Assembly (NCBI GenBank): GCA_942492995.1
Contig: OW818653.1
Span: forward strand, 1,260,001 to 1,292,000
From: an uncultured Erysipelotrichaceae bacterium
GTDB lineage: Bacteria > Bacillota_I > Bacilli_A > Erysipelotrichales > Erysipelotrichaceae
DNA length: 32,000 nucleotides
Direction of reading: 5' to 3'
This document shows positions 12,941 to 32,000 of this stretch, in pieces; position 1 is the stretch's first letter, and each line of letters opens with the position of its first letter. Below the pieces are notes generated by a model. It did no database searches. It worked only from the letters and a program-made list of their open reading frames with translations, and had not been told where the DNA came from. The position numbers were made by a program, and so were the translations under genes.

Positions 12941-12967
12941 CCTGTATAAAACCCCTTTCATTATTTA

Positions 12968-12997: not shown

Positions 12998-13107
12998 CGA
13001 ATTACTTGTTAAATGTTTCACATAAAATGTAAATTCATGAAATGTTTGTGATTTTTTTAATTAATATACTATAAAAGTTAAACTATTCACAAGTGATATA
13101 ATAATGG

Positions 13108-13147: not shown

Positions 13148-13152
13148 AATTA

Positions 13153-13971: not shown

Positions 13972-14164
13972 ATGCTTTCCCTAACACTTTCTAATCGTTG
14001 TGTATTTCAAGAATAGCGTATGTACCTTTTATTTACATTTATTATGCTCATAACCATTAAGAAATAATTAATGAAAATAGTGAAAATTTACATAGACAGA
14101 TGGGTCATAAACACATAAAATTAAAACAATACAAATTTGAAAATTAGAAAAAGTGGAGAGTTTT

Positions 14165-15109: not shown

Positions 15110-15126
15110 AGTCTTCTCCTTTTCAT

Positions 15127-16342: not shown

Positions 16343-16344
16343 GT

Positions 16345-17169: not shown

Positions 17170-17173
17170 TTTT

Positions 17174-18093: not shown

Positions 18094-18553
18094 AATGTCC
18101 AGATTTCCCACCAATCTTTTCGATTAAATAGATATCCGTTATATGCATCGAAGGATCCATTGATTTTGCCATATCATAGATTGTGAGCGCACAAATGCTT
18201 GCGCCTGTTAGAGCTTCCATTTCTACCCCTGTCTTCCCTTCACACGTTACTTTACAAACTACTCTTATCGAGAAATTTGTATCATCAGAATGAAAAAGAA
18301 TATTAATGCCTGTTAATAAAAGTGGATGGGCCATTGGGATTAATTCAGCTGTCTTCTTAACTGCTTGTATCCCACCAACTTGCGCAACAGATAGAACATC
18401 ACCTTTTTTCATTTGTTTGTTCATAATCGCATTATAGGTAATTTCGTTCATATGAATTACAGCTTGTGCACTCGCGGTTCTTGAAGTAACAGTCTTTTGT
18501 GTCACATCTACCATCTGACCATGCCCCTGTTCATTTATGTGTGTAAGTTTCAT
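18077..18553 (-). CDS. moaC: Cyclic pyranopterin monophosphate synthase MoaC
   Basis: 158 aa. GKTGVEMEALTGASICALTIYDMAKS is the MoaC signature. Confidence 0.9.
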   Translation of the reverse strand: MKLTHINEQGHGQMVDVTQKTVTSRTASAQAVIHMNEITYNAIMNKQMKKGDVLSVAQVGGIQAVKKTAELIPMAHPLLLTGINILFHSDDTNFSIRVVCKVTCEGKTGVEMEALTGASICALTIYDMAKSMDPSMHITDIYLIEKIGGKSGHYVRNI

Positions 18554-19513
18554 TTATCCTCCTATTTGACTCATTTGACGAACAATCATTTGATGTTCAT
18601 CGAGTAAATGTTTTTCTGGTTTAACTTGGTAAGCTTCAAGAATTAAAGGTAATATGTCTAAATTAGCTCGTAATGGAGTTTTTAAATCAATTTCAAGATC
18701 ACTGTGTAAACATGGTTTTAATTTACCATCTGGAGTTAATCTCAATCGATTACAATATGCACAGAAATTACATGACAATGGAGAGATTAGACCTACCTTG
18801 CCTCTTGCGCCATCTAATCGATAGTATCGAGCAGGAGATGAAGGATCATCTGATTTTACTGACTTTAGTTCAGGATGATGACTTATGATTAGTTCATTTG
18901 AATAAAAGTGCTTTTTAGCATATGCGACATTACTACCAATCGGCATTAGTTCAATGAAACGCACATCAACGCCCCAATCCTTTGTGAGTTGAATAAAATC
19001 AGTTATTTCATCATCATTGATTCCTCGATTAACGACACAATTTAACTTAACTTTAAGTCCTACATTTAATGCACTGTGTATTCCTTCCAACACATTACGT
19101 AATTGTCCACCACGGCTCATTAATTTATATCGGTCATGATTTAATGTGTCCAAACTGATATTTACACGATGTAACCCAGCTTCTTTTAATGGTTTTGCGA
19201 GCAATTTAAGAAGCACTCCATTGGTAGTCATTGCGATATCATCAAGTTGTTTTAGTTGAGCAACTTTTCGAACAAACTCAACCACATCTTTACGCACTAA
19301 AGGTTCTCCACCTGTAATACGTAATTTCTTTACACCTAAACCAACAAATTTTTCAATTACTGTATATAACTCTTCAAAACTTAGTATTTCTTCGTGTGGC
19401 ATCGATTCTACACCTTCTTCAGGCATACAATAGGTACAACGCAGATTACATCGATCTGTAATTGATACTCTCAGGTACGTTAAATCACGATTAAAACGAT
19501 CAAGCATATTCAA
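18554..19513 (-). CDS. moaA: GTP 3',8-cyclase MoaA (radical SAM)
   Basis: LRVSITDRCNLRCTYCMPEE (CxxxCxxC) and the C-terminal cluster CNFCAYCNRLRLTPDGKLKPCL. Confidence 0.95.
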   Translation of the reverse strand: MNMLDRFNRDLTYLRVSITDRCNLRCTYCMPEEGVESMPHEEILSFEELYTVIEKFVGLGVKKLRITGGEPLVRKDVVEFVRKVAQLKQLDDIAMTTNGVLLKLLAKPLKEAGLHRVNISLDTLNHDRYKLMSRGGQLRNVLEGIHSALNVGLKVKLNCVVNRGINDDEITDFIQLTKDWGVDVRFIELMPIGSNVAYAKKHFYSNELIISHHPELKSVKSDDPSSPARYYRLDGARGKVGLISPLSCNFCAYCNRLRLTPDGKLKPCLHSDLEIDLKTPLRANLDILPLILEAYQVKPEKHLLDEHQMIVRQMSQIGG

Positions 19514-21410
19514 TTACCTCCCCGCAGTTATGTGTATCATAACCACCTAATTCAAAACACTTATCTCTGAACTCATTTGATTTTAAACACTCTAAAAATA
19601 ACTTCATCATGTCAGTTTCAAGAAGTCCTTTACGACATACAAAATCATAGTCCTCTTCACCTAATGGAATAAAATCGCATCCCATTACGTTTGCGGCAGA
19701 ATAAACACCTAATCCACAATCTACTACACCATTTTGTACAGCCGCAGCGACTGCTAAATGTGTATTTAATTCTTTATCATATCCATTAATACTATTTGGA
19801 TTTATATTCTTTTTAGTTAGCCAATAATCAAGTAGAACGCGTGTTCCGGCACCGCGTTGTCGATTCACAAATCGATGATACACTAAATCTTCTATCGTAC
19901 ATATATTTAGTGGATTATCTTTTTTAACAATCAAACCCTGAATTCGTTTAACCCCTTTTATTAACACCATTTCTTCATCTTTGAATAGTTGTTTAATAGT
20001 ATCAATATTATAGGTTCCACTTTGATCAAGTAAGTGTGTCATTGCGATATGTGATTCTTTTCGTTTAAGTGCTAATAATCCAGCATAAGAACCTACATGT
20101 ACACTTGATATATGATAGTGCACATTATTTCTTTCTATCTGTTCTAATTGATTATTTAATACATCCATTACAAGATCATGTGATCCTATTGCCATCAGTG
20201 TATTTTGAATGGTTTGTATCGGTTTATTTAACCAAACCTCAATTCTTTCATTCGATTCTATGCCTTCACTATTCTTATCAATCATTGCGTATCCATCGCT
20301 CTTTACAACAGACATCATCATACCTGCACCACGAGCAAGCGGAGTTGCGATATATTTTCCATCTATATACCCAAGTTTTACACGGATGTATTCTTTACTC
20401 TTTAAACTTGATACGATTCTACGTGTACTTATCGCTTGAATAATCGATGTTTGTTTAACTGGATAATGATTTAATTTCAATAATAATGGTGTAACAAACT
20501 CTTCAAATACGATATGAGCACTAACAGGATAACCAGGAATTCCAATAACCGGTACATTTCCAATTCTGCCTAATATCGCAGGTTTACCTGGTTTTATGGA
20601 TAATCCATGGATGAATACTTCACCTAATTCTTTGATTACAGATGCGGTATAATCTTCTCTTCCCGCTGATGAACCTGCATTAATTAGTACTACGTCATAG
20701 TGTTCAGCCGCAGATTTTACCGCATTTAATAACTCATCATATACATCAGGAATAATCTTTAACGTTGTTGGGATTGAGAATGCTTCTTGTGCCAATCCCA
20801 TAAATAAATACGAATTAGATTCCACAATATCCCCAATATTTACTGAATCATACGCAGACCGTATTTCCGTTCCAGTTGGAATAATCGCTACACTAACTTG
20901 TTTATACACTTCAATATGGAGTTGATTAGCAGCCATAAGAACACTAATATCCATTGGACGTAACACATGTTCCATCGGAAATAAAAGTTCACCTTCTACA
21001 ATATCTTCACCAATTGGTCGCACATTTTCCCACGGGACAACTGATTTAATAATCTGTATCCCATTATCTGTTTCTATGCAATCTTCAACCATAATAACCG
21101 CATCATACGGATCAAGAATAGGATCACCCGTATCTACTTCGATATAGTCATTTACATTAATTAACAGTGGTCTATGTTCATTCGCATCAAATGTTACTCT
21201 CGAATTAATTGCGATTCCATCCATCGCTGAACTTGGATAAAATGGCACACTTCGTTTAGCATAAATTGGTTGCGAAAGTACACGATTTAGAGCGTTTCTA
21301 CTTTCCACAATTTCAATTTTGCGATCCAAATAAATATCTTCTAAGACTTGATTATAGTTTGCCTTAGCTATTTCTAAATCTGTAGACTTAAGATAAAAAG
21401 ATCGTTTCAT
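19500..21410 (-). CDS. moeA: MoeA (metal insertase) fused to a C-terminal periplasmic-binding-protein-like domain
   Basis: 636 aa. The N-terminal ~400 aa is MoeA-like (SAMDGIAI, IPTGTE, INAGSSAGREDY, GIPGYPVSAHIVF). The C-terminal ~230 aa (IGSHDL...NRQRGAGTRVLLD...CGLGV) resembles a type-2 PBP oxyanion-binding fold. Confidence 0.75.
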   Translation of the reverse strand: MKRSFYLKSTDLEIAKANYNQVLEDIYLDRKIEIVESRNALNRVLSQPIYAKRSVPFYPSSAMDGIAINSRVTFDANEHRPLLINVNDYIEVDTGDPILDPYDAVIMVEDCIETDNGIQIIKSVVPWENVRPIGEDIVEGELLFPMEHVLRPMDISVLMAANQLHIEVYKQVSVAIIPTGTEIRSAYDSVNIGDIVESNSYLFMGLAQEAFSIPTTLKIIPDVYDELLNAVKSAAEHYDVVLINAGSSAGREDYTASVIKELGEVFIHGLSIKPGKPAILGRIGNVPVIGIPGYPVSAHIVFEEFVTPLLLKLNHYPVKQTSIIQAISTRRIVSSLKSKEYIRVKLGYIDGKYIATPLARGAGMMMSVVKSDGYAMIDKNSEGIESNERIEVWLNKPIQTIQNTLMAIGSHDLVMDVLNNQLEQIERNNVHYHISSVHVGSYAGLLALKRKESHIAMTHLLDQSGTYNIDTIKQLFKDEEMVLIKGVKRIQGLIVKKDNPLNICTIEDLVYHRFVNRQRGAGTRVLLDYWLTKKNINPNSINGYDKELNTHLAVAAAVQNGVVDCGLGVYSAANVMGCDFIPLGEEDYDFVCRKGLLETDMMKLFLECLKSNEFRDKCFELGGYDTHNCGEVIEYA

Positions 21411-21425
21411 ACAATTCCCCCTTAA

Positions 21426-22649
21426 CTAAATTAATATGACATTTACTAATTCATCCTTTTTATATCCTTCTAAATTACCCGGTACGAAAAGATATGCGTT
21501 AGCCGACAATAATGTAGAAATTAAACCACTCTTTGTGTATACAATACGTGCTCTAGTACAATTATTTTCTTGGTAAACGGTTAAGAAGATAATCGTTTCT
21601 TTACCTTGAGATGAAATTACATTTGTGTCTATTTTTGCGAATATTGAGTTCGTGTTCTGTTCAAATACTTGTTGGAATGATGTTTTGAAAACTCTCTGGA
21701 ATATCGCAAATGCACTCACTGGATGACCAGGTAAACCGATAAGAAGACACTTACCAATAGAGCCTAAAATAGTTGGTTTCCCAGGCTTAACAGCTAAACC
21801 ATGCGACCACACAACATTTTTCCCTAACGATTCAAATATCTTAACCGTGTAATCTTTTTCACCTTGTGAACTCCCGCCACTTACAAATATCACATCAACT
21901 TCTTTACTTAAACGATTAATTGCTTTATTTAGTTGATCAAAATCATCTTGGATTAATAACGTAGAATGTACATTAATGTTTAATTCATTTAATTGAACAG
22001 TTAAAAGAGTTCCATTAATATCATGAACTTGACCTTTTTTTATGGATTGATTTATTGGAAACACTTCATCACCGGTAGAAATGATTGCGGCGTTTAATTT
22101 CGCATAAACTTCTACAGTATCAATTCCAACACCAGCACAAACACCAATAGCTTGAGTAGTTAGACGCTTACCCTTCTCAACAATTACCTGTTTGTAATTT
22201 ATATCTTCACCTGTTCGAATAACATTTTCATTACTCGCAATCGATTTATAAATAAGCACATCATTCGTATTGAATAATTCTGTATACTCAATCATTACAA
22301 CTGCGTCTGCACCTTCTGGCAACATTCCACCAGTTGGCACATATGCACATTCACCAGCATTAATTGTAATAAGTGCTTCTTGTCCCATCGCAATCTTATC
22401 AACACACTTCAGAATTGTTGGCAGTGATTCAGATGCGCCTTGTGTCTCTTTTGAGTGTACTGCATACCCATCTACAGTAGATCGTGTAAAGTTAGGAAGC
22501 ACTTCTGGACTGTATATCGGGGTTGAGACAATACGATTAAGTGCTTGTTCAATACAAATAATCTCGGTTTTACCAAGATGATATTTCTTTAAATGATTTT
22601 TACAATTCACTATAGCATTTTCGACAGTATCAACTTTTAATAGAGCCAT
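21426..22649 (-). CDS. moeA: Molybdopterin molybdenum/tungsten-transferase MoeA (stand-alone)
   Basis: 407 aa. STVDGYAV, VPTGGMLPEGADAVV, VSGGSSQGEKDY and GLPGHPVSAFAIF. Confidence 0.9.
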   Translation of the reverse strand: MALLKVDTVENAIVNCKNHLKKYHLGKTEIICIEQALNRIVSTPIYSPEVLPNFTRSTVDGYAVHSKETQGASESLPTILKCVDKIAMGQEALITINAGECAYVPTGGMLPEGADAVVMIEYTELFNTNDVLIYKSIASNENVIRTGEDINYKQVIVEKGKRLTTQAIGVCAGVGIDTVEVYAKLNAAIISTGDEVFPINQSIKKGQVHDINGTLLTVQLNELNINVHSTLLIQDDFDQLNKAINRLSKEVDVIFVSGGSSQGEKDYTVKIFESLGKNVVWSHGLAVKPGKPTILGSIGKCLLIGLPGHPVSAFAIFQRVFKTSFQQVFEQNTNSIFAKIDTNVISSQGKETIIFLTVYQENNCTRARIVYTKSGLISTLLSANAYLFVPGNLEGYKKDELVNVILI

Positions 22650-22711
22650 TTCAAATCAATTTTATGGTCATAAAAAAACACCAACACCTTTAAATCTAGT
22701 ATAGCACATTG

Positions 22712-22728
22712 AAATGTAAGCGCTTTAT
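22712..22728. promoter_or_regulatory. cre-like operator copy 1 (AAATGTAAGCGCTTTAT) in the divergent moeA / radical-SAM promoter region
   Basis: 17-mer identical to 23862-23878. The core ATGTAAGCGCTTTAT matches 9 of the 10 specified positions of the cre consensus WTGNAANCGNWNNCW. An extended -10 (TGcTATACT, minus strand, ~22697-22705) for the moeA operon lies just beside it. Confidence 0.5.
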
Positions 22729-22780
22729 TAAAAATGTGAAATATCTTGAGTCGATTAATGTTTTGCCCTATAGTAAGATT

Positions 22781-23848
22781 ATGATGAATTTACATATCAA
22801 TGATGATGTCCCAATAAATAAGATTTATCTAGAACTTACACAACGCTGTAATCTTCAATGTAAGAACTGTTTTAGACAGAATTGGACATTACCAGAAACA
22901 CAAATGTCGCAAGAGATTTTTGACAATATACGAAATAGTTTAAACGATATCCCAAGTTTAAAAGAGATTGTGTTAGGTGGAATTGGTGAACCTACGATAC
23001 ATCCTAAATTTGTGGAATGGGTTAAATTACTACCTAATGTTGAACTTAGTGTTACGACTAACGCCTATTATTGGAAAGACGAAACGATTCAATTACTAGC
23101 AGAACGATTTAACCGCATTGTAATTTCTGTCGATGGTTTAGAATCAACATTCTACAAAATACGTAGCTTTGAACTTTCTTTACTTGAACAAAATGTAAAA
23201 CGATTAATCCATATTCGTACATCACTTGGAAAGTATGAACCATTCTTAATTACACAAATTGTATTAAGTACAGACAATGTCGATGAGATTGAAGAACTAA
23301 TCCCAATACTCGCAAAGATGGGATTTATGAAGATTATTATATCTAACTTGTTACCTCAAAACGAGTTAGATAAAGATAAAATACTATACACTTTACATGA
23401 AAATCCAAGAATGACAAAACTTCGTACAACTTGGTTAAATAAAGCTTTATCCAATCAGATTCAAATAAAATTTCCAGCAATACAACTTAAAACAGAAAGA
23501 CGTTGTAACTTCGTACATGATGGAACGCTAACCATAAACAGTGATGGTAATATTGCGCCGTGTTATCGATTTGCACATCCATCCATCGAATATGCATTTG
23601 GTAGACGTAAACAAGTTTATCCTTTCCATTATGGTAATGTCCTTAATCAATCAATTAACGAGATTTGGTTTACACGTTTATATACCGATCTACGCCTGCA
23701 AAACATTCGCAATCGTTTCCCATCATGCCCAGATTGTGATCGGGTGGATTGTTGCGACTACATCAATGACTCACTTTGTGATTGTAGAGGACAGAATCCC
23801 TCATGTGCTGATTGTTTATGGACAAGAGATTTCATTCAATGCATATAA
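22781..23848 (+). CDS. Radical SAM/SPASM-domain maturase associated with tungsten-cofactor oxidoreductases
   Basis: LELTQRCNLQCKNC (CxxxCxxC) and GGIGEPT. The Cys-rich C-terminal SPASM-like region reads CYRF...CPDCDRVDCCDY...CDCRGQNPSCADC. It lies immediately upstream of aor. Start placed at ATG 22781 (MMNLHIN). The SD is weak, so the start is uncertain. Confidence 0.7.
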   Translation: MMNLHINDDVPINKIYLELTQRCNLQCKNCFRQNWTLPETQMSQEIFDNIRNSLNDIPSLKEIVLGGIGEPTIHPKFVEWVKLLPNVELSVTTNAYYWKDETIQLLAERFNRIVISVDGLESTFYKIRSFELSLLEQNVKRLIHIRTSLGKYEPFLITQIVLSTDNVDEIEELIPILAKMGFMKIIISNLLPQNELDKDKILYTLHENPRMTKLRTTWLNKALSNQIQIKFPAIQLKTERRCNFVHDGTLTINSDGNIAPCYRFAHPSIEYAFGRRKQVYPFHYGNVLNQSINEIWFTRLYTDLRLQNIRNRFPSCPDCDRVDCCDYINDSLCDCRGQNPSCADCLWTRDFIQCI

Positions 23849-23852
23849 GACC

Positions 23853-23881
23853 TTTACTTTAAAATGTAAGCGCTTTATAAT
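23853..23881 (+). promoter_or_regulatory. Sigma-A promoter of aor overlapped by cre-like operator copy 2 (23862-23878)
   Basis: TTTACT (23853-23858) - 17 nt - TATAAT (23876-23881). The 17-mer AAATGTAAGCGCTTTAT fills the spacer and runs into the -10. Confidence 0.6.
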
Positions 23882-23887
23882 TAAGTT

Positions 23888-24012
23888 AAGTTCCGAGTTA
23901 TTCACCTCAAAAGGCAAAATAACCGATGGGTTTTATTGGAAACGATAAAGCCTCCCACTCCTTGGAAAGGGACTGCATTTTTAAAATGCGGCCCTGTACA
24001 CCAACACATAAT
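23888..24012 (+). promoter_or_regulatory. Candidate Moco/Tuco (molybdenum/tungsten cofactor) riboswitch aptamer in the aor leader
   Basis: The ~170-nt leader contains blocks I recognise from the Moco RNA motif: CCGAG (23893-23897), AAAGCCTCC (23947-23955) and GGAAAGGG (23964-23971). Local hairpins: GTTATT/AATAAC (23897-23923), CCGAT/ATTGG (23923-23939), TCCC/GGGA (23953-23972). I could not run a covariance model. Confidence 0.55.
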
Positions 24013-24037
24013 ACAAGGGTCGCCCCTTGTTTTTTTA
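24013..24037 (+). terminator. Intrinsic terminator acting as the leader's expression platform, 20 nt before the aor SD
   Basis: CAAGGG (24014-24019) - TCGC - CCCTTG (24024-24029) followed by TTTTTTT. SD AAAGGAGGA at 24047-24055 and ATG at 24058. Confidence 0.75.
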
Positions 24038-24057
24038 TGTTTGACAAAGGAGGAAAT

Positions 24058-25857
24058 ATGTCAACAACTTATAATCTTAAATTGCTTAGAGTCAATCTTA
24101 CTGAAGGAACAATCAAAACTGAAACTTTAGATGAAAAATTGGCTAAAAAATTCTTAGGGGGACGTGGTTTAGGCACTAAAATACTATTCGATGATGGTAT
24201 TGCTAAAGTAGATCCACTATCACCGGAAAACAAGCTTATCTTTATTAATGGACCATTAACTGGTGCTAATGTTCCAACTGGCGGACGTTATATGGTCGTC
24301 ACAAAATCACCTTTGAATAATATGATCGCAAGTTCAAACTCAGGTGGTGTTTGGGGTGCCCGTTTAAAATATGCTGGTTATGATGCACTAATTGTAGAAG
24401 GTAAAGCAAGTAAACCTGTTTATATTTCAATCGATGATGAAAAAGTAGAAATCAAAGATGCGAAAGAATTATGGGGCAAAACTTCTGAACATGTCGAAGA
24501 AACATTGAAAAAAGTTTATGGAGAAGAAGCTTCAGTCTTAAATATCGGTCCTGCAGGAGAAAATCTATCTCTAATGGCTGCGATTATTAATGAAGCGGAT
24601 CGTGCAGCTGGTAGAAGTGGTGTTGGAGCTGTTATGGGATCAAAATTACTAAAAGCTATCGTATGTAAATCAACTCGTACAGTTGTAGAACCTTTCGATA
24701 AAGAAGCATTACGTGAAACAGTTACTCATTCATTAAAACTTATTCGTGATAATGGTGTAACTGGAACTGGATTACCAACGTATGGTACTGCAGTATTAGT
24801 CAATATCATCAATAATATTGGTTCATTCCCAACTAAAAACTGGCAAGAATCAGAATTCGCAAATGCGGAACAAATCAGTGGCGAAACACTAAAAGAAAAA
24901 CATATCGTTAAACAAGGTTTCTGTCACCGCTGTCCTATCGGCTGTGGTCGTGTTATTAATCTAAATGGTAAAGTAGTTGGTGGTCCTGAATATGAACCAC
25001 TATGGGCTTATGGCGCAAACTGTGGTGTTGATAATTTAGAAGCCATCAATGAAGCAAACTATTGGGCTAATGAAATGGGTTTAGATGCGATTAGTTGCCC
25101 TACAACGATTGCGACTGCGATGGAATTGTATCAAAAAGGTTATATTAAAGAAGAAGACTGTGATGGCATACCTCTAGAATTTGGTAGTGCCAAGGCAATC
25201 GTAGAATGGACAAAACGCATTGGATTGGGACATAATAAATTAGCTAAATTAATGGCTCAAGGGTCATATCGTTTATGTGAAGCGTATGGTGTTCCTGAAC
25301 TTTCAATGTCTGTTAAGAAATTAGAAATGCCTGCATATGATGCACGTGGTATCCAAGGGATTGGTTTAAACTATGCGACATCAAATCGTGGTGGATGTCA
25401 TGTACGTGGCTATATGATTTCTCCTGAAATTTTAGGTCTACCTCAACTACTTGATCGTTTTGAAACTAAAGATAAAGCTATTTGGACTAAAACATTCCAA
25501 GATTTAACCGCTGTTATTGACTCAGCTGGTGTTTGTTTATTCACATCATTCGCATTGGGTGCACCAGAATATGCATCAATGATTAATGCGGCAACTGGCA
25601 CAACGTATACACCTGCTCAATTGCTTGAAGTTGGAGAACGTATCTATAATATTGAACGTTTATTTAACAAAGAAGCTGGTATGAAAGCAGAAGATGATCG
25701 TTTGCCAACACGTCTTATGAAAGAACCTATTCCTGCAGGTCCATCAAAAGGTGAAGTAAGTAAGTTGAACATTACATTGCCTGAGTATTACACTGTAAGA
25801 GGTTGGGTTAACGCATTCCCTACTGAGGAAACATTAAAACGTTTAGACTTACTCTAA
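24058..25857 (+). CDS. aor: Tungsten-containing aldehyde:ferredoxin oxidoreductase (AOR family)
   Basis: 599 aa from ATG 24058 (MSTTYNLKLLRVNLTEG...FLGGRGLG). 4Fe-4S ligands CHRCPIGCG, plus SNRGGCH and DSAGVCLF. The track ORF start at 23926 is an upstream artefact covering the leader. Confidence 0.9.
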   Translation: MSTTYNLKLLRVNLTEGTIKTETLDEKLAKKFLGGRGLGTKILFDDGIAKVDPLSPENKLIFINGPLTGANVPTGGRYMVVTKSPLNNMIASSNSGGVWGARLKYAGYDALIVEGKASKPVYISIDDEKVEIKDAKELWGKTSEHVEETLKKVYGEEASVLNIGPAGENLSLMAAIINEADRAAGRSGVGAVMGSKLLKAIVCKSTRTVVEPFDKEALRETVTHSLKLIRDNGVTGTGLPTYGTAVLVNIINNIGSFPTKNWQESEFANAEQISGETLKEKHIVKQGFCHRCPIGCGRVINLNGKVVGGPEYEPLWAYGANCGVDNLEAINEANYWANEMGLDAISCPTTIATAMELYQKGYIKEEDCDGIPLEFGSAKAIVEWTKRIGLGHNKLAKLMAQGSYRLCEAYGVPELSMSVKKLEMPAYDARGIQGIGLNYATSNRGGCHVRGYMISPEILGLPQLLDRFETKDKAIWTKTFQDLTAVIDSAGVCLFTSFALGAPEYASMINAATGTTYTPAQLLEVGERIYNIERLFNKEAGMKAEDDRLPTRLMKEPIPAGPSKGEVSKLNITLPEYYTVRGWVNAFPTEETLKRLDLL

Positions 25858-25872
25858 CCAATAAGGAGATTT

Positions 25873-26094
25873 ATGATTGAAGTTCGACTCTTTGCGTATT
25901 TTCGTGATAATAGAGGTAAAATTCTTCATTTAGATGCGCAAGAATTCCAAACTCCTCAAAGTATACTTAATCATCTTGGAATCGATATCAAAGATGTGGC
26001 TATATTATTAGTTAATGGTAGACATTCTAATGGTGAACATATTTTAAAGGATAGTGACATTGTCGCATTCTTCCCTCCTGTAGCAGGCGGATAA
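25873..26094 (+). CDS. moaD: MoaD/ThiS-family sulfur-carrier protein
   Basis: 73 aa ending in ...FFPPVAGG (C-terminal Gly-Gly). SD AAGGAG at 25862-25867. Confidence 0.8.
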   Translation: MIEVRLFAYFRDNRGKILHLDAQEFQTPQSILNHLGIDIKDVAILLVNGRHSNGEHILKDSDIVAFFPPVAGG

Positions 26095-26095
26095 T

Positions 26096-26133
26096 AAAAA
26101 GGTCTATAATCATTTAATTGGTTATAGACCTTT
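26096..26133. terminator. Bidirectional terminator between moaD and moeB
   Basis: AGGTCTATAA (26100-26109) pairs with TTATAGACCT (26122-26131). It is flanked by an A-run and a T-rich tract. The right arm overlaps the last moeB codons. Confidence 0.7.
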
Positions 26134-26940
26134 ATTATGTTTGGTACCACAAAGTATACATTCTTCATTTCTATTGATTTGAATTTCTTCAAATTCGCAA
26201 TCCAATCCATCGAATGTTAGTAATCTACCTAACATTAACTGTCCTGCATCTGTAATTAATTTAATTACTTCAAGCGCTTGGAGTGAACCGATAACACCGG
26301 TAATTGCGCCAAGTATACCAATTTCATTACAGGTTGGGAATTCATGACCTTCGTTATTATTTGGATATAAACAACGATAACACGGCGTTTGATCAGGGAT
26401 GATTGTTGTAAGTATTCCGCTAAATCCAACGACAGCCCCTTCTATAAGTGGCTTTTTTAGTTTATAACATGTGTCTGTTATTAAATAGCGAACTTTGATT
26501 GTATCTACCGCATCCACAATCACATCATATGTTTCAAATATTCCTTCAATATTATCTACTTTCAATTCAATATTATGTTCGATGATTTGTATATTGGGAT
26601 TTAAACGCGATAACTTTTCTTTTGCGGATACTGTTTTTAATGACTCCAAGTCATCAGATGAATGTAGAATCTGTCGATTTAAGTTAGAAAGCTTTATCAC
26701 ATCGTAATCCACAATTCCGAGTGTCCCAACACCAGCCGCAGCTAAATAGTAAAGGATTGGTGATCCAAGTCCTCCAGCTCCACAAACACATACTCTTGCG
26801 TTCTTTAATTTTTCTTGTCCCTCTATCCCAATATCTTTTAAAATCATTTGCCTATGATAACGTATAGAATCATTATTATTTAGTTTATCCATGTTCATAC
26901 CTTTAGATTCATTATAATTTTTAGTATTCTTTAAACTCAT
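26122..26940 (-). CDS. moeB: MoeB/ThiF-family adenylyltransferase (E1-like) for the sulfur carrier
   Basis: RYHRQMIL, GAGGLGSP (ATP loop), NLNRQIL, and zinc CxxC pairs (CYRC ... CILC). No C-terminal rhodanese domain. The start could also be the MNMDKL Met. Confidence 0.8.
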   Translation of the reverse strand: MSLKNTKNYNESKGMNMDKLNNNDSIRYHRQMILKDIGIEGQEKLKNARVCVCGAGGLGSPILYYLAAAGVGTLGIVDYDVIKLSNLNRQILHSSDDLESLKTVSAKEKLSRLNPNIQIIEHNIELKVDNIEGIFETYDVIVDAVDTIKVRYLITDTCYKLKKPLIEGAVVGFSGILTTIIPDQTPCYRCLYPNNNEGHEFPTCNEIGILGAITGVIGSLQALEVIKLITDAGQLMLGRLLTFDGLDCEFEEIQINRNEECILCGTKHNKGL

Positions 26941-26981
26941 TTTACACCATTAAAGTAATTGATTATACTTAATCGAACTAT

Positions 26982-27002
26982 AAAAAAAGCACTTTCGTGC
27001 TT
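26982..27002 (-). terminator. Intrinsic terminator downstream of cueP
   Basis: Minus strand reads AAGCAC-GAAA-GTGCTT followed by TTTTTTTA (plus-strand arms 26987-26992 and 26997-27002). Confidence 0.7.
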
Positions 27003-27094
27003 ATGTAAACATTCCCTATATAACCATACCAATTAGATGTAATTTCAAAAGGGGGAGTTTTGTATATCAATATGGTTTGTTAGGTAAATAGTGA

Positions 27095-27664
27095 TTAGAA
27101 TTTTATTGGTTCAAGTTTTAATGGTGTAGTAATACATGTATCACTTTCACTAAAGGTAGAGATAGGATATTCAACAGTCAAACCATCATAATCGACTTTT
27201 AATGTAGCTTTAATTCCTTTTGGCAACCATATTCCAATAAACCCATTATCCTGAGTAGTACGCTCTTCATCAATAATAATCTGATTGTTTTCATCGACAA
27301 TTCTAACTCTCATGGTTTGATTGAATATTTCACCACGACATGAAACTAAATTATGAATGGTACATGGGTGTACTTCATTAATATATGGTGCGATAGACAC
27401 AAAGAAAGAATCCGTAGGCAAGTCTAGACTATATTCCTTTTCATTATCATATAGAAATAGTTTATCTCCTGTAATTCGTGCCCCAACATGTGTAGGTTCA
27501 TCAATTCTTTGATCAAGATTATTCACTACTTCTTTAATTTCTGTATTTTCTAAATCAAGTTGTTTTAATACTTTGTTTACACCACTTGGTAACGAAAGAA
27601 ACCAAACTGATACGCTTATAAATACAATTCCTAAAATAATGATTAACCCAAGTTTATTTTTCAT
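27095..27664 (-). CDS. cueP: CueP-family metal (copper)-binding protein with an N-terminal membrane anchor
   Basis: 189 aa. FFVSIAPYINEVHPCTIHNLVSCRGE ... DNGFIGIWLPKG ... SDTCITTPL follows the pattern I recall for CueP (APY..xH.C..H.L..CRGE, NGFIG.WLP, D.TCIT). Confidence 0.7.
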   Translation of the reverse strand: MKNKLGLIIILGIVFISVSVWFLSLPSGVNKVLKQLDLENTEIKEVVNNLDQRIDEPTHVGARITGDKLFLYDNEKEYSLDLPTDSFFVSIAPYINEVHPCTIHNLVSCRGEIFNQTMRVRIVDENNQIIIDEERTTQDNGFIGIWLPKGIKATLKVDYDGLTVEYPISTFSESDTCITTPLKLEPIKF

Positions 27665-27696
27665 TGTTCAACCCTCATTTATAGTTTAAAGGTTGG

Positions 27697-27716
27697 ATAT
27701 GTAGAACTTATGAAGA
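27697..27716 (-). promoter_or_regulatory. Direct-repeat response-regulator box (a) upstream of cueP
   Basis: Minus strand reads TCTTCATAAGT TCTACATAT, two half-sites 11 bp apart. TTCTAC lies 17 nt upstream of TATAAA (27683-27678). It overlaps the HK stop codon. Confidence 0.55.
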
Positions 27717-29108
27717 TTGTTTAATTGGAAGTATTATCGTGAAAGTAGACCCAACATTTAACTCACTTTCAACTTTAATGGTTCCTTTATGTGCTTCAAC
27801 GAGTTGTTTAACAATGGTTAAACCAATACCACTACCTCCGCTCTCACGTGTCCTGGAAGAATCTACTCGATAGAAACGTTCAAATATATAAGGTAATGAT
27901 TCTTCTGGTATGCCTATACCTGTATCTGATATTTGAATTAAGATGTTATTGTCCATTTTATTAACATTGATTTTCAGTTTCGCATTTTCATTTGAGTAAT
28001 TATATGCATTCAAAATCAAGTTATATAGCACCTGATAAATTCGACTTCGATCAGCTTGGATATTAAGTGGTATTGAGTTTAGTTCGATTGAAATAGATTG
28101 ACTTGTTTGTTTGAACTCAAGTGATTTTAAACATTCCTTAATAAGTTCATTGATATCAAATTCAGTTAGTTCTAGCTTATTGGTTAATTGTTCAATCTGA
28201 GTTAATTGTTCTAAATCTTTCACAATTCTTGTCAATTGTAATATTTCATCATGAATGCTCTTTAATCGATTATCATCCATCTTAATAATTCCATCCATAA
28301 TAGCTTCAACACTTATTTGAAGTGTTGATAAAGGTGTTCTTAGTTCATGTGCTACATCTGAAGTAATTTGTTTCTTTATACGATCTTGTTCATAAAGATT
28401 TATCGATAAGTGATTTATCGAATCAATCAACTCACTAACTTCATTAATATTTGTTTTATATTCAATCTCACTTCCGTAATGTCCATTCGCAATATTCTTC
28501 GTCGCATCAATCGTCTTTAAGATTGGTCTACTAAGTGTCTTCGCAAAGAGCACACCAACAACTACACTTGATAATATGCTTGTTAATGCAATGATCAATA
28601 AAACTGATTGAAGTTGGTTAATAAATATTACATCATCCTCTTGATAGAAATAAGGTCCGAAATAACTAATTGTGACTTTGCCTACATCCGTATTTTTGTA
28701 CTCAAGCAAATAATCATATGACACAAATTCACCTTTTTGAGTTGGAAATTGCGTTAACATACGATGTGAAATATCATTTATCAACTGTACACAAGCACTC
28801 ATATCCCAAACTTCCGCATCCCAAATAGAACTATTCTCGTTATCATAGACTTTTATAATATAACCACTATATAACGCTAGCATGCCTACTTCATGTACTT
28901 TTTCATTATCCCAAGACGAACGATTAACATCATACTGTAGTGATACTTGGGCAATAATTTGATTAATTGTTTGCGTTTGTTTATCAATAATATAATCTTT
29001 GAATCGATCATGGATAAAATAGCTCGATATTGAACTTACTAATCCAACCGCAACTAAAACAGTTAATACAATAACAGATGTAAGTTTACGACTTAAAGAT
29101 TGTTTCAT
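27708..29108 (-). CDS. Sensor histidine kinase (two TM segments, ~140-aa extracytoplasmic loop, HAMP, HisKA, HATPase)
   Basis: H-box SDVAHELRTPLS, N-box LILNAYNYS, G-boxes DTGIGI and GGSGIGL. Confidence 0.9.
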   Translation of the reverse strand: MKQSLSRKLTSVIVLTVLVAVGLVSSISSYFIHDRFKDYIIDKQTQTINQIIAQVSLQYDVNRSSWDNEKVHEVGMLALYSGYIIKVYDNENSSIWDAEVWDMSACVQLINDISHRMLTQFPTQKGEFVSYDYLLEYKNTDVGKVTISYFGPYFYQEDDVIFINQLQSVLLIIALTSILSSVVVGVLFAKTLSRPILKTIDATKNIANGHYGSEIEYKTNINEVSELIDSINHLSINLYEQDRIKKQITSDVAHELRTPLSTLQISVEAIMDGIIKMDDNRLKSIHDEILQLTRIVKDLEQLTQIEQLTNKLELTEFDINELIKECLKSLEFKQTSQSISIELNSIPLNIQADRSRIYQVLYNLILNAYNYSNENAKLKINVNKMDNNILIQISDTGIGIPEESLPYIFERFYRVDSSRTRESGGSGIGLTIVKQLVEAHKGTIKVESELNVGSTFTIILPIKQSS

Positions 29109-29800
29109 GTTAAAGACCCGAATCGATAACCTAAACCAAATACTGTTTGTATGTACATTGGTTTCTTTGGATTATCTTCAATTTTATTTCTTAAATTTTT
29201 AATATGCGTATCGATTGTACGATCATAACCATCAAAATCTGATCCAAACGCATAATCTACCAATTCTACTCGATTAAATACTCTATTTGGATGATGGATT
29301 AATACAGTTAATAGACGAAATTCATTAGGGGTTAAATGTATTTCAACATTATTTTTAAGTACACTTTTCTTATTCAAATCAATCTCTAATCCTCCATCAA
29401 ATTTCATGATTTGATATAGTGGTAAAATGGATGATTCTGATCGTCTTAGTACTGTCTCAACACGCGCATTCAATTCTTTCAAACTAAATGGCTTTGTGAT
29501 ATAGTCATCTGCCCCAAGTTTCAATCCATCAATAATGTTTTCTTCTGTCGAACGTGCAGTTAACATAATAATCGGCACTCTCGAAAATTGTCGTATTGTT
29601 TGACATACTTGTTCACCACTTAATTTTGGAATCATTAAATCAAGTAACACTAATGAAAAAGTTAAGTCTTTTGCGAGTGCAACTGCGCTAACTCCATCAT
29701 GTGTAGTGACAATATTAAAACCTTGATGCTCGAAATTCGCTTTAAGTATTTCGACAAGTTTTATTTCATCTTCAACAATCAGGATTGTTTTATTTTCCAT
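29105..29800 (-). CDS. OmpR/PhoB-family response regulator
   Basis: Receiver domain ILIVEDE...LLDLMIP...TA and winged-helix C-terminus LTPNEFRLL...VFGLGYRF. Start moved to ATG 29800 (MENKTILIVEDE), preceded by GAGG. The 4-nt overlap with the HK gene suggests translational coupling. Confidence 0.9.
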   Translation of the reverse strand: MENKTILIVEDEIKLVEILKANFEHQGFNIVTTHDGVSAVALAKDLTFSLVLLDLMIPKLSGEQVCQTIRQFSRVPIIMLTARSTEENIIDGLKLGADDYITKPFSLKELNARVETVLRRSESSILPLYQIMKFDGGLEIDLNKKSVLKNNVEIHLTPNEFRLLTVLIHHPNRVFNRVELVDYAFGSDFDGYDRTIDTHIKNLRNKIEDNPKKPMYIQTVFGLGYRFGSLT

Positions 29801-29821
29801 TCGTATAACCTCATTTAATGC

Positions 29822-29850
29822 ATTAATGCCCAACTAGGTTGAGCATTAAT
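29822..29850 (-). other. 13-bp-arm hairpin/palindrome between the lipoprotein stop and the response-regulator SD
   Basis: ATTAATGCCCAAC (29822-29834) - TAG - GTTGAGCATTAAT (29838-29850), with one mismatch and no T-tract after it on the minus strand. Confidence 0.5.
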
Positions 29851-29880
29851 ACGATTTATAACTACACTTCAATTATTGAT

Positions 29881-30582
29881 TTATTTACCGTTAATATCAA
29901 ATGGTTTTAATAGTTTATCAACCATTACCATTTTACCGTTTTCATCCATTATCTCAACTTGTGCAAATACCCAACCTTCAACAGATTCAACATCAACACC
30001 AGCATCAACAAATGTCTGTGGATTTAATACAAACACAATATCTTTATCGTTAGTCGTAAAGTCTTTAGCCCATTCAAATACATTCCCATTACCGAAACTT
30101 AACCCATAATGATCAAGTGCTGCATGATAGCCCACTAAAGTAGGATCAATTCTGAATACTGATTCAAATGCTGGAACTACATCTTGAACATTAACGCCTT
30201 CATTCCCTAAATCATATCCAAATACAATCTTATTATCAACAAACATTCCTTCTGGCAATAAGGCAGTATCTAATCCTGCGTTAATAAAAGGTGTCGCTTC
30301 AATCTCCATTTTATAGTCGTATGGAGTTGTGAATGCGATGTCTGATGATATCGAGAATACAACTTGATTGTCTGGTGAAGTTAGTGTGTAAAATCTACTT
30401 TCATCTACAAGTTGGAAACTTACGTAATTCGCCATATCTCCAAACGCTATAATTGATGGATCTTTTTCATCAACTGGTGTTTCTACTACAGGTGTCTCTA
30501 CTACAGGTTCTTCATCTACCTTAGCAGTACATGCGCCTAATGTTAAAACTAACAAAATGGCTAAAATAATCATTCTTTTCAT
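29881..30582 (-). CDS. Uncharacterised lipoprotein (no family recognised)
   Basis: MKRMIILAILLVLTLGAC lipobox, then a PVVETPVVETPV linker. SD GAGGGAG lies 7 nt upstream. No motif that I can assign. Confidence 0.6.
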   Translation of the reverse strand: MKRMIILAILLVLTLGACTAKVDEEPVVETPVVETPVDEKDPSIIAFGDMANYVSFQLVDESRFYTLTSPDNQVVFSISSDIAFTTPYDYKMEIEATPFINAGLDTALLPEGMFVDNKIVFGYDLGNEGVNVQDVVPAFESVFRIDPTLVGYHAALDHYGLSFGNGNVFEWAKDFTTNDKDIVFVLNPQTFVDAGVDVESVEGWVFAQVEIMDENGKMVMVDKLLKPFDINGK

Positions 30583-30628
30583 GTTTTGTCTCCCTCAGTT
30601 TTCACTGCTTATAAACAATAACATAGAA

Positions 30629-30648
30629 ATATGTAGAACTTATGTAGA
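30629..30648 (-). promoter_or_regulatory. Direct-repeat response-regulator box (b) upstream of the lipoprotein gene
   Basis: Minus strand reads TCTACATAAGT TCTACATAT. TTCTAC lies 19 nt upstream of TATAAG (30613-30608). 16 nt are identical to box (a). Confidence 0.55.
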
Positions 30649-30683
30649 TATGCTTTTTTAGATATCATGCATAATTATGAATT

Positions 30684-30703
30684 CCTTCATAATTTCTACA
30701 TAA
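30684..30703 (+). promoter_or_regulatory. Direct-repeat response-regulator box (c) upstream of the micro-ORF
   Basis: Plus strand reads CCTTCATAATT TCTACATAA. TTCTAC lies 18 nt upstream of TAGAGT (30718-30723). Confidence 0.5.
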
Positions 30704-30743
30704 TATTTCGTTAGATTTAGAGTGTAAATAAGGAGGTGATTTA

Positions 30744-30839
30744 ATGTTAGGTTTAGCACTTGCGAATTGCATACATACTTGTGGACTACGTGGACAAGCA
30801 TTAGCTGATTGTATTCAAATGATGATTCATGGTATGTAG
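30744..30839 (+). CDS. Unannotated 31-aa Cys/His/Met-containing micro-protein
   Basis: Not in the ORF track. AAGGAGGTG (30729-30737) lies 6 nt before the ATG. Own translation: MLGLALANCIHTCGLRGQALADCIQMMIHGM, then stop. An in-frame TAA sits at 30729-30731. A dedicated terminator lies 27 nt downstream. Confidence 0.55.
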   Translation: MLGLALANCIHTCGLRGQALADCIQMMIHGM

Positions 30840-30865
30840 TCTTTATAAATATTAAGCGTTATAAG

Positions 30866-30897
30866 AAAAATTCATTCGTTTATAGAATGAATTTTTT
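30866..30897. terminator. Bidirectional intrinsic terminator (micro-ORF / SHOCT gene)
   Basis: AAAAATTCATTC (30866-30877) - GTTTATA - GAATGAATTTTT (30885-30896). The A-run and T-run form part of the arms. Confidence 0.8.
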
Positions 30898-30900
30898 AAT

Positions 30901-31632
30901 TTATTTAAGTGTACTTGTAATCTGTAAGAACTCTTCACGTGTGATTTCACCTCGTGCATAACGTTCTTTCGCAATATTCAACGCATTGTTAGTCGTTGGT
31001 TGACCTTGATTTCTATTATTAGAAGAAACTAAATAAACCACAGCCCCAATCACAATTGCGAATCCTAAGAATCCCATAAACATTCCTCCTGAACCAAAGT
31101 TCATCATTCGATTATTTCCATAGTCTTGTGCATAAGCAAAGCTATCATCATTACGATTATAGCGATAATTGCGACCCATCATTCCATAGTTTTGGTCTGT
31201 ATTATACCCATCATTACGATATCCACGCATCATTGGTCCAATTTGTCCATACGAATTGGTTTGATCATCACTATATCCATATTGCATAAATGTCATCATT
31301 GTAATTGGATAACCATTTAAATAATCAGCTCCAATTTGAGTATGCAAGTTGGTTAATGTTTCTGAATCATCACCACCATAATATTCATCAAGTGCTTCAT
31401 GTTGTTCAGAATCTCCAATATACGCTTCCATTACGGAATCACCAAGTTCTTCAAGTAATACTTCATCAACTAGATTAACATCAATCGCATCATTAACTGT
31501 AATCCCTAAATCAGTTCTAATTTCTGAAACAATTGCGTCAACTGAACGCATAGGTGTTTCTAATGCGCTAACACCAATAACAGTTGTTAATAGAAAAGCG
31601 ACAATAAACAATGAGGTTAATATTTTTTTCAT
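30901..31632 (-). CDS. Membrane protein: signal/anchor, acidic ectodomain, Met/Tyr/Asn/Gly-rich low-complexity tract, TM helix, C-terminal SHOCT domain
   Basis: 243 aa. The low-complexity tract reads MMTFMQYGY...GPMMRGYRNDGYNTDQNYGMMGRNYRYNRND...NNRMMNFGSGGMFMG. TM helix FLGFAIVIGAVVYLV. The SHOCT-like tail is AKERYARGEITREEFLQI. Confidence 0.65.
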   Translation of the reverse strand: MKKILTSLFIVAFLLTTVIGVSALETPMRSVDAIVSEIRTDLGITVNDAIDVNLVDEVLLEELGDSVMEAYIGDSEQHEALDEYYGGDDSETLTNLHTQIGADYLNGYPITMMTFMQYGYSDDQTNSYGQIGPMMRGYRNDGYNTDQNYGMMGRNYRYNRNDDSFAYAQDYGNNRMMNFGSGGMFMGFLGFAIVIGAVVYLVSSNNRNQGQPTTNNALNIAKERYARGEITREEFLQITSTLK

Positions 31633-31644
31633 TTATCTCCCTTC

Positions 31645-31908
31645 CTACAAACTCTTTCGAATTGTATCGTATTCTTCTTTTGTAATCTCACCTTTAGCAT
31701 ATCGTTCATTAAGGATTTCTATACTTCGATTACTCGTTTGAGATACAACATTCTTATTTGAACGATTCATCAATGTTTTAATTAGCCAAACGATTCCAAC
31801 AATAACTAGAACGATAATAATTAAACAAACTAACATTCCAAACCAACCAAAGTTGCCCATCATTCCAAATCTTGAAAATGCTTGACCACCACTAAATCCT
31901 CTCATCAT
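31645..31908 (-). CDS. Small SHOCT-domain membrane protein with a Met/Gly/Phe-rich N-terminus
   Basis: 87 aa. MMRGFSGGQAFSRFGMMGNFGWFGM, then TM helix LVCLIIIVLVIVGIVWLI, then LNERYAKGEITKEEYDTI (SHOCT). Confidence 0.7.
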   Translation of the reverse strand: MMRGFSGGQAFSRFGMMGNFGWFGMLVCLIIIVLVIVGIVWLIKTLMNRSNKNVVSQTSNRSIEILNERYAKGEITKEEYDTIRKSL

Positions 31909-32000
31909 ATGTTTACCCTCATATAAAAGTTTAACTTTTATATTATTTTAACTTTCCGTCATATCTCTCTGACATCTGTATCTTAACAGTCAATTGTTAC

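Follow-up and report, generated by a model that had tools for sequence, protein, structure and literature searches.

A Predicted Copper-Responsive Two-Component System and Its Accessory Proteins in an Erysipelotrichaceae cop-Type Locus Lacking Pump Operons

Introduction

Copper-sensing two-component systems (TCSs) are well studied in Proteobacteria and Corynebacterium; for the Bacillota, the literature searched holds no characterised copper-sensing TCS, and the control of cop genes is described there only via CsoR and CopY. In this work we analysed a 32,000-nt stretch of DNA from an uncultured Erysipelotrichaceae bacterium, an anaerobic gut-type Firmicute (contig OW818653.1; hereinafter, the window), to which the box counts and the absence of pumps reported below refer. 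It harbors adjacent genes coding for a CueP-family protein, a sensor histidine kinase (HK), a response regulator (RR), a lipoprotein, a micro-protein, and two membrane proteins with a SHOCT domain (SH243 and SH87). We estimate at about 70% the probability that this region represents the sensing/regulatory and accessory part of an Erysipelotrichaceae-type cop locus, lacking the pump operons and maintained under purifying selection.

The closest described systems come from different bacteria. In Corynebacterium glutamicum, CopRS activates copR and the divergent cg3286 operon in a way that depends strictly on copper, and CopR binds TGAAGATTTnnTGAAGATTT, a site defined by electrophoretic mobility shift assays and mutagenesis (PMC3140484); in C. 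crenatum, the deletion of copR lowers cueP mRNA by 78–98% (PMC11124244). The Corynebacterium CopR site is the only characterised operator of a Gram-positive copper TCS. Since C. glutamicum CopRS is a characterised TCS-plus-CueP precedent, the statement of the initial annotation of the window that only CueP has a described role is not supported. A copper-responsive TCS driving CueP is known; the sensor domain of the kinase, the CopA-partner lipoprotein, the SH243 ectodomain, and the micro-protein preceded by a regulatory box are undescribed.

As to the single proteins, Salmonella CueP delivers copper to SodCII, its gene is induced by CueR, and a role has been described for the Cys/His cluster of its C-terminal domain (PMC7558416). 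In Staphylococcus aureus, the gene of CopL (copXL/copBL), a lipoprotein that binds copper at the surface, directly follows a Cu-ATPase gene (PMC5947656). The SHOCT domain has no established function (PMC3581485), and a SHOCT membrane protein of Haloferax is induced by silver (PMC10694973). Searches of the literature on SHOCT and copper, on copper TCSs in Clostridia, and on Desulfosporosinus did not retrieve any description of the system reported here.

Results and Discussion

The RR Box and Its Likeness to the Corynebacterium CopR Operator

The direct repeat CTWCAT-N5-CTACAT (the RR box) occurs three times in the window against 0.23 matches expected, a count that no shuffle reached; when the spacer was left free, the same three sites stayed the sole exact matches in the window. 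Each copy is located 15–17 nt upstream of a −10-like hexamer, i.e., where the −35 element belongs. The three boxed promoters proposed in the initial annotation are, on these counts, real. The copy upstream of cueP overlaps the kinase gene in its last codons, the stop codon included, so that the cueP promoter falls within the 3′ end of the operon ahead of it. Moreover, the lipoprotein-RR-HK operon carries the box itself and is therefore probably autoregulated.

The box is also found in loci of related organisms (designated here by L and a number), in up to eight other species. The copy of the lipoprotein operon occupies an equivalent position in L001, L006, L008, and L010, and a box lies upstream of the lipoprotein gene wherever this gene heads the operon; where it follows copA (L006, L007, L018, L061, and L065), it is copA that is boxed. 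The micro-open reading frame (micro-ORF) is preceded by the box, with at most two mismatches, in seven of the eight loci, L010 having only a weaker site; likewise, the cueP box is marked in 7/8 loci, lying in L061 2 nt ahead of the called start. Exact TCTWCA-N5-TCTWCA sites become rarer in loci that are more distant, where five out of nine precede HMA-DsbD, FtrD-like, or CopA genes.

A plasmid of Corynebacterium comes has the same cop layout, with the gene at the cg3286 position annotated as “CueP family metal-binding protein”. Its intergenic site (AAATCTTCATCAAGTCTTCA) is identical at 15 of 21 positions to the window cueP box with its flank (CAATCTTCATAAGTTCTACA); the two share the 11-bp period and the core TCTWCA, and binding of the latter by the window RR is predicted. 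The likeness with Corynebacterium CopRS hence lies in a direct-repeat operator with an 11-bp period (AAATCTTCAtcAAGTCTTCA in Corynebacterium and CAATCTTCAtaAGTTCTACA in the window, 15/21), in an OmpR-type TCS beside a CueP-family gene, for which the control suggested here comes from the box position only, and in a TCS operon that is apparently autoregulated, with extracytoplasmic copper as the proposed signal. Unlike in the window, where it sits at −35, the box lies far upstream of cg3286 in Corynebacterium. Furthermore, the lipoprotein, the micro-ORF, and the SHOCT proteins have no counterpart in Corynebacterium, whereas the window lacks the multicopper oxidase, TlpA, and the pump.

Homologous cop Loci in Related Bacillota

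The lipoproteins of the closest relatives, L006 and L007 (the latter from a metagenome-assembled Erysipelotrichaceae genome), are 83–85% identical to that of the window. In L007 the genes are arranged in the order CopB (CPH type, N-terminus rich in His), SH87, SH243, micro-ORF (on the opposite strand), CopA, CsoR, DUF2933, HMA-DsbD, CopZ, CopZ, lipoprotein, RR, HK, CueP, and ThiF. The window and the 96%-identical contigs L001–L003 share the same seven non-pump genes with order and orientation kept, and neither CopB nor the copA-to-copZ operon is present at the locus in any of them. A system facing the envelope and distinct from the canonical cop operon had been suggested initially; however, since L006 and L007 interleave the same genes, in the same order, with copB and copA-csoR-DUF2933-HMA/DsbD-copZ-copZ, the module is not separate from cop operons. 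L018 and L059 show a further arrangement (CopB, CopA, lipoprotein, CsoR, HMA-DsbD, RR, HK, CueP, CopZ, and the SH243 homologue, the micro-ORF being convergent to the last).

As to the CsoR/CopY-controlled copZA operon of Firmicutes, the locus of the relatives holds CopA, CopZ, and CsoR, whereas tblastn retrieved from the window none of the Cu P-type ATPase, chaperone, and repressor of a canonical cop operon. CsoR and CopY are cytoplasmic repressors, in contrast to the surface-sensing TCS that is predicted to exert control in the window.

The lipoprotein has relatives in at least 358 species (one genome scanned per species), mostly Bacillota (Erysipelotrichaceae, Clostridia, Acetobacterium, Herbinix, and Oscillospiraceae). 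The neighborhoods of the 79 best loci of these 358 species were annotated with our own ORF caller and phmmer, and the identities of the neighbors were confirmed by Pfam. A CopA-type ATPase gene lies directly upstream of the lipoprotein gene, on the same strand, in 63 out of 78 loci; an HMA-DsbD_2(-cupredoxin) membrane protein is encoded nearby in 56 loci, an FtrD-like protein in 38, CsoR in 10, and a kinase whose sensor domain resembles that of the window in 54. The 53 loci whose sequence extends 5 kb or more to each side of the lipoprotein comprise 38 with both the ATPase and the kinase within 6 kb, 10 with the ATPase only, 3 with the kinase only, and 2 with neither. The locus of the homologue of Acetoanaerobium noterae, for instance, consists of HMA-DsbD, HMA-ATPase, lipoprotein, RR, and HK. 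A single representative ATPase (L026, 822 aa) was inspected by eye: it has two GMTCAAC HMA domains and the transmembrane motifs CPC, N-x6-YN-x4-P, and M-x2-SS-x5-N, which we take to be the signature of a Cu(I)/Ag(I) P1B-1 pump.

CueP and the micro-ORF occur in an identical set of 8 out of 80 species loci; SH243 is found in 5 of these 8, and at least two of the three contigs without it end prematurely. Homologues of the genes of the module do recur together in cop loci, but the co-occurrence of cueP, micro-ORF, and SH243 is confined to one clade. Accordingly, the full gene set is a one-clade elaboration of a widespread CopA-lipoprotein-RR-HK core. This conserved core (79 species), to which CueP, the micro-ORF, and SH243 are one-clade additions, speaks against the single six-gene module of the initial annotation, as does the separate, unboxed transcription unit of the SHOCT pair, which has its own terminator.

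The ratio of nonsynonymous to synonymous substitution rates (dN/dS) with respect to L007 ranges between 0.08 and 0.20 for each of the seven genes (0.18 for SH87 and 0.19 for the micro-ORF). Between two pump-less genomes, the window and L001, it is 0.018 for the lipoprotein, 0.054 for the HK, and 0.045 for CueP. Seven intact genes and low dN/dS values argue against decay.

The CueP-Family Protein

The profile searches established the homology to CueP well above the thresholds of both PF21172 (E = 5e-45, 153 bits against a cutoff of 27) and the NCBIfam model CueP_fam NF038094 (155 bits against 60). In the alignment with Salmonella CueP (4GQZ; E = 2e-30), the protein retains the HPC..H..C motif as well as the C-terminal Cys (TC). 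The two proteins share homology across the whole domain, the Cys/His cluster, and an extracytoplasmic location; unlike the Salmonella protein, that of the window belongs to a Gram-positive-type cell, is anchored N-terminally (its N-terminus being a hydrophobic signal or anchor), and scores below the cutoff of the Salmonella-type CueP metallochaperone model NF038095 (139.4 bits against 195). Furthermore, cueP is induced by CueR in Salmonella (PMC7558416), whereas in the window it lies under a TCS box. The window CueP is a predicted surface-exposed copper-binding protein.

The Two-Component System and the Sensor Domain of the Kinase

The kinase and the regulator have the features of an OmpR/PhoB-type TCS, i.e., a HisKA/HATPase kinase and a regulator with REC and winged-helix domains encoded by adjoining genes. 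The HK has two transmembrane (TM) helices around an extracytoplasmic domain of about 135 residues, followed by HAMP, HisKA, and HATPase. The alignment of the 59 orthologous kinases from the lipoprotein loci revealed that C106 and M117 of this ectodomain are conserved in 100% of the sequences, M76 in 90%, M103 in 86%, and H72 in 81%. Cys, Met, and His are the usual ligands of Cu(I), which makes direct copper sensing by the HK plausible. The sensor domain is uncharacterised.

The pair resembles the proteobacterial CusRS/CopRS/PcoRS systems, where copper-handling genes are switched on by an OmpR-type regulator together with a membrane kinase whose sensor is extracytoplasmic. In contrast to these, the window proteins score under the cutoffs of CusS/CopS TIGR01386 (kinase, 181.2 against 292.55) and CusR/CopR TIGR01387 (RR, 158.3 against 279.2), and the sensor domain has no match in the PDB. 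The window operator also differs from the palindromic CusR box.

The CopA-Partner Lipoprotein

The lipoprotein consists of a lipobox, a Pro/Glu/Val tether, and a globular domain (residues 42–233) made up of two tandem repeats of about 90 residues, which were detected by profile–profile comparison (hhalign, 96% probability, E = 1.4e-9) but not by BLASTP between the two halves. At E ≤ 1 no Pfam or NCBIfam family was retrieved, save for a weak signal-peptide match, and none of the 1236 homologues has a Pfam domain. Invariant residues include H153, D157, H158, E170, W171, N178, D179, K180, D181, E210, and M212. The AlphaFold (AF2) model (pLDDT 84.9, pTM 0.78) has no PDB match at E < 0.1 with Foldseek, and the alignment profile did not retrieve any relative among the PDB sequences. 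Among plasmids the sole match was an unannotated Acetoanaerobium replicon. This lipoprotein represents an uncharacterised family partnering with CopA.

By analogy, S. aureus CopL would be its closest functional counterpart: in both cases a gene for a copper P-type ATPase is located immediately upstream, as in the 63 of 78 loci mentioned above, and a surface copper-binding role is plausible for both. Unlike this functional likeness, there is no sequence relationship, CopL being a DUF1541 protein and the window lipoprotein having no DUF1541 match in Pfam; moreover, the lipoprotein family is also coupled to a TCS, and its predicted fold has no PDB match.

The Micro-Protein

The micro-ORF codes for a Cys/Met-rich peptide of 31 residues (MLGLALANCIHTCGLRGQALADCIQMMIHGM) and is preceded by a strong Shine–Dalgarno (SD) sequence (AAGGAGGTGAT). 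It is called as a gene in L001–L003, and tblastn retrieved homologues in L006, L007, L008, L010, L018, L059, L061, and L065. An exhaustive search of 1.8 billion representatives yielded a family of 7 clusters (29–31 aa), whose consensus, by eye, is MxGLxLAxCIHxCGxxGQxLAxCIxMM. The strong SD sequence, the conservation in the loci of eight other species, and the low dN/dS value confirm the micro-ORF as a real gene on the plus strand.

A 47-aa minus-strand ORF (30658..30801) was also considered as the micro-ORF and rejected, since it is the 31-aa plus-strand peptide that is conserved in eight relatives and that has the strong SD sequence and the low dN/dS.

The protein P0205 (416 aa), which bears six tandem NCxHxCCGLTGxALxDC repeats, matches the micro-ORF core ANCIHTCGLRGQALADC (58% identity, E = 5e-14); this likeness may reflect a common small Cys-hairpin motif, or coincidence.

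The SHOCT Membrane Proteins

Both membrane proteins end in a SHOCT domain scoring above the PF09851 gathering cutoff of 27 (34.2 bits for SH87 and 28.9 bits for SH243). SH87 has an N-terminal Met/Gly/Phe-rich tail, one TM helix, and the C-terminal SHOCT; in SH243 a signal peptide is followed by a conserved helical ectodomain (about residues 31–120), a disordered Met/Gly/Tyr/Asn-rich tract (120–179), a TM helix (182–205), and a cytoplasmic SHOCT (215–242). The shared architecture that the initial annotation had attributed to them is thus supported by Pfam and by the structure model. The Met-rich ectodomains, together with the conserved helical ectodomain of SH243, are undescribed.

The SH243 family comprises 84 members. 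E61, E62, L63, G64, D65, S66, M68, H78, H97, Y104, and L105 are invariant in the ectodomain (AF2 model, pLDDT about 90), and the GMMG/Tyr/Asn tract that follows it is variable and disordered. No PDB fold matched SH243, nor did its alignment profile retrieve PDB sequences, and an exact look-up of its sequence gave no match. The structure and profile searches on the lipoprotein and on the SH243 ectodomain, suggested initially, retrieved no solved relative for either of them.

The pair formed by SH243 and a small SHOCT protein recurs elsewhere beside a CopB-type ATPase, and within 4 kb of CopA-CsoR-DUF2933-HMA-DsbD. The relatives of SH87 have different settings: the gene of one is flanked by those of a Metal_resist protein and a multicopper oxidase, a second immediately precedes an HMA-ATPase gene, a third lies close to ArsR and ArsP, and another has no metal-related context.

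Two further observations concern these genes. A 225-aa member of the SH243 family (P0197) has the signal peptide and the early ectodomain replaced by a CopA-like HMA domain (MTCAACA...), which looks like a deletion or an assembly fusion of copA with the SH243 gene. Moreover, a conserved 12-mer (ACTTTYGTAACA), which is not the RR box, is found about 30–130 nt upstream of the annotated start of SH87-type genes in four genomes; it may be a promoter element or the operator of another regulator. A CsoR-type inverted repeat upstream of SH87 was sought by eye, and none was seen.

The Proposed Copper-Responsive Locus without Pumps and Alternative Explanations

According to the reading proposed here, the HK would sense copper, probably Cu(I), outside the membrane, either directly via the Cys, Met, and His residues of its ectodomain or aided by the co-transcribed lipoprotein, and would phosphorylate the RR, as expected from its OmpR-type family. 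The position and the conservation of the motif suggest that the RR would bind CTWCAT-N5-CTACAT (core TCTWCA, 11-bp period) in place of a −35 hexamer and activate three promoters, i.e., those of the lipoprotein-RR-HK operon, of cueP, and of the divergent 31-aa micro-protein. SH87 and SH243, which in relatives accompany a CopB-type ATPase, probably serve as copper binders at the cell surface through their Met-rich ectodomains. The assignment to copper, put forward in the initial annotation, is well supported and no longer depends on CueP and composition: homologues of every gene of the module are located inside cop loci of related Bacillota, the box precedes copA in relatives, and it is similar to the CopR operator of Corynebacterium, which was defined by experiment and drives a CueP-family gene (PMC3140484). 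Judging from this locus, the binding and sensing of copper at the surface can apparently be retained without a linked efflux pump.

Several data weigh against this reading. The RR is 41% identical to the CopR of the Corynebacterium plasmid, a value ordinary among OmpR-family paralogues, and the kinases align in the cytoplasmic part only (30%), homology over the sensing region not being found; Corynebacterium CopS, of 395 aa, has no large ectodomain. No solved structure was matched by the sequence of the HK sensor domain, the PDB matches covering only the cytoplasmic part. RR and HK fall under the cutoff of every curated metal-sensing TCS family, their best matches being PhoB/MtrA/RegX3 and BaeS, respectively. 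Because of the RR identity, the cytoplasmic-only alignment, and the family scores, the TCS is not filed in any curated family; the window system would nevertheless work, by analogy, like Corynebacterium CopRS. No RR box was found upstream of SH87 in the window. Probing the window by tblastn with the CopA, CopB, CopZ, CsoR, HMA-DsbD, and DUF2933 sequences of the relatives (all present in L006 and L007) did not retrieve any of them, which bears out the absence of pump, CopZ, and CsoR observed initially. Lastly, as the co-occurrence of CueP, micro-ORF, and SH243 is found within one clade, it is not phylogenetically independent.

As a different explanation, the TCS might respond to envelope stress in general, in the manner of BaeSR/CpxAR, with cueP in its regulon and copper as one of several indirect inducers. 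The best NCBIfam match of the kinase is indeed BaeS_SmeS and the RR matches BaeR in the PDB, the ectodomain matches no solved metal-sensor domain, and Salmonella cueP additionally requires CpxR/CpxA. However, the scores remain far below the cutoffs of these families (BaeS_SmeS 244.6 against 500, CpxA 171.7 against 486, BaeR 187 against 380), the box lies ahead of copA, HMA-DsbD, and FtrD-like genes in related loci, and kinases with this sensor domain, whose ectodomain has an invariant Cys and an invariant Met, are encoded near Cu-ATPases in 52 out of 57 loci, so that we regard this explanation as unlikely. It is also conceivable that the module handles another metal (Ag, Zn, or Cd) or that it supplies copper to extracytoplasmic cuproenzymes rather than taking part in detoxification, as might be suggested by the transfer of copper from Salmonella CueP to SodCII (PMC7558416), by the window having no efflux pump, and by the iron-transport genes located nearby (FTR1, FeoAB, and a DtxR-type repressor gene). 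This appears quite improbable in view of the one partner ATPase examined by eye, with its GMTCxxC HMA domains and its transmembrane motifs of the Cu(I)/Ag(I) type, of the genes co-located in relatives (CsoR, CopZ, and the CPH-type CopB with a His-rich N-terminus), and of the locus holding no cuproenzyme gene.

The lack, in the window and in L001–L003, of both pump operons of L006 and L007 might in turn mean that the locus is a functionless, decaying remnant left by their deletion. Seven ORFs, boxes, SD sites, and terminators are intact, however, and dN/dS is 0.018–0.054 between pump-less genomes, which makes this explanation very unlikely indeed.

Beyond the sensing and accessory role proposed for the region, we tentatively advance, as a possibility that we hold to be rather doubtful, that the locus places three undescribed types of copper-handling proteins under one CopR-like box and that this sensing and sequestering layer works alone. 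The two-repeat surface lipoprotein (with invariant H-x3-D-H, Trp, and Met) may accept copper from CopA and/or present it to the kinase; the 31-aa micro-protein (CxxxC...C/MM) may be a copper-inducible cytoplasmic Cu(I) buffer or regulator; and the helical ectodomain (EELGDSxM...H...H), tethered by a Met-rich tract to the cytoplasmic SHOCT, may link metal binding at the surface to a cytoplasmic partner, e.g., CopB. If true, the last of these would provide SHOCT with its first functional context, and the pump-less state would show the sensing and sequestering layer functioning independently.

For copper biology the advance is incremental. The locus offers a testable regulon (one box, three promoters, and a kinase ectodomain with invariant Cys and Met) and a functional context for three unannotated families, i.e., the widespread lipoprotein without Pfam domain, the micro-protein, and the SHOCT-fused ectodomain, with entry points into the function of SHOCT-linked proteins and of the CopA-partner lipoprotein.

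Organization of the Locus

All six minus-strand ORFs of the initial annotation are present (Table 1). From boxes and terminators four transcription units can be depicted, namely SH87-SH243, without a box, and micro-ORF, lipoprotein-RR-HK, and cueP, each with its own box. The hairpin between the convergent SH243 and micro-ORF has a stem of 12–13 bp, with −10.1 kcal/mol (z −6.2) and a U-run on the minus strand and −12.6 kcal/mol (z −5.7) and a U-run on the plus strand, and is predicted to terminate both the SH87-SH243 operon and the micro-ORF. The RR and HK genes overlap by 4 nt. The start of the RR is ambiguous: the longest ORF (242 aa) begins at TTG 29833, and the alternative ATG, which has GAGG 9 nt upstream, is the one chosen by the gene callers in the near-identical contigs L001–L003.

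Table 1. Features of the locus (positions refer to the window unless a relative is named).
Feature	Position	Strand	Remarks
Intrinsic terminator 3′ of cueP	26987..27002	−	−7.4 kcal/mol and U-run
CueP-family protein, 189 aa	27095..27664	−	PF21172, NF038094
RR box CTTCATAAGTTCTACAT	27699..27715	−	−35 position of the cueP promoter; TATAAA 15 nt downstream
Sensor histidine kinase (HK), 466 aa	27708..29108	−	HAMP, HisKA, HATPase_c
Response regulator (RR), OmpR/PhoB family, 231 aa from ATG 29800	29105..29800	−	Response_reg and Trans_reg_C
Lipoprotein, 233 aa	29881..30582	−	ORF; lipobox LGAC
RR box CTACATAAGTTCTACAT	30631..30647	−	−35 position of the lipoprotein-RR-HK promoter; TATAAG 17 nt downstream
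RR box CTTCATAATTTCTACAT	30685..30701	+	−35 position of the micro-ORF promoter; TAGAGT 16 nt downstream
Micro-ORF, 31 aa	30744..30839	+	Divergent from the lipoprotein operon
AT-rich bidirectional hairpin (predicted terminator)	30865..30896	both	Between convergent SH243 and micro-ORF
SH243, type-I membrane protein, 243 aa	30901..31632	−	ORF with SHOCT domain
SH87, SHOCT membrane protein, 87 aa	31645..31908	−	ORF; first gene of a two-gene operon without RR box
12-mer ACTTTYGTAACA	31995..32000		Cut by the window end; L001 8577..8588, L007 3386..3397, L061 4247..4258, L087 7607..7618

Neighboring Genes and Other Observations

A small membrane protein of 73–86 aa, with a His/Met-rich C-terminus ending in CH, is encoded between csoR and HMA-DsbD in L006 (3641–3862), L007 (7806–8048), and L061 (10872–11132), and its counterpart in L087 is DUF2933 (PF11666); this DUF2933-type protein is not encoded in the window.

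A segment of 12.4 kb (14676–27037) of the window has no counterpart in L001, which is otherwise 96% identical and in which the two flanks adjoin directly. The segment harbors genes related to the molybdenum/tungsten cofactor (MoaA-like, MoaC, two MoeA, MogA-like, and MOSC), an ABC transporter whose binding protein is of the PBP_like_2 type, a radical-SAM/SPASM protein, an aldehyde:ferredoxin oxidoreductase (AOR), MoaD, and ThiF; the ThiF-MoaD-AOR part is also located 3′ of cueP in L006 and L007. The search of the whole window against Rfam retrieved only a molybdenum cofactor (Moco) riboswitch, outside the module (23879–23988, plus strand; 55.6 bits, with the gathering threshold at 36). The riboswitch either overlaps the start annotated for the AOR gene (23926..25857) or immediately precedes it; the gene probably starts, in fact, further downstream.

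The adjacent region 7584–14675 (corresponding to 13611–20702 of L001) is iron-related and codes for a flavin reductase, FTR1, an ABC-F protein, a DtxR-type repressor, FeoA, and FeoB; in L001, which is free of the 12.4-kb island, this block adjoins the module.

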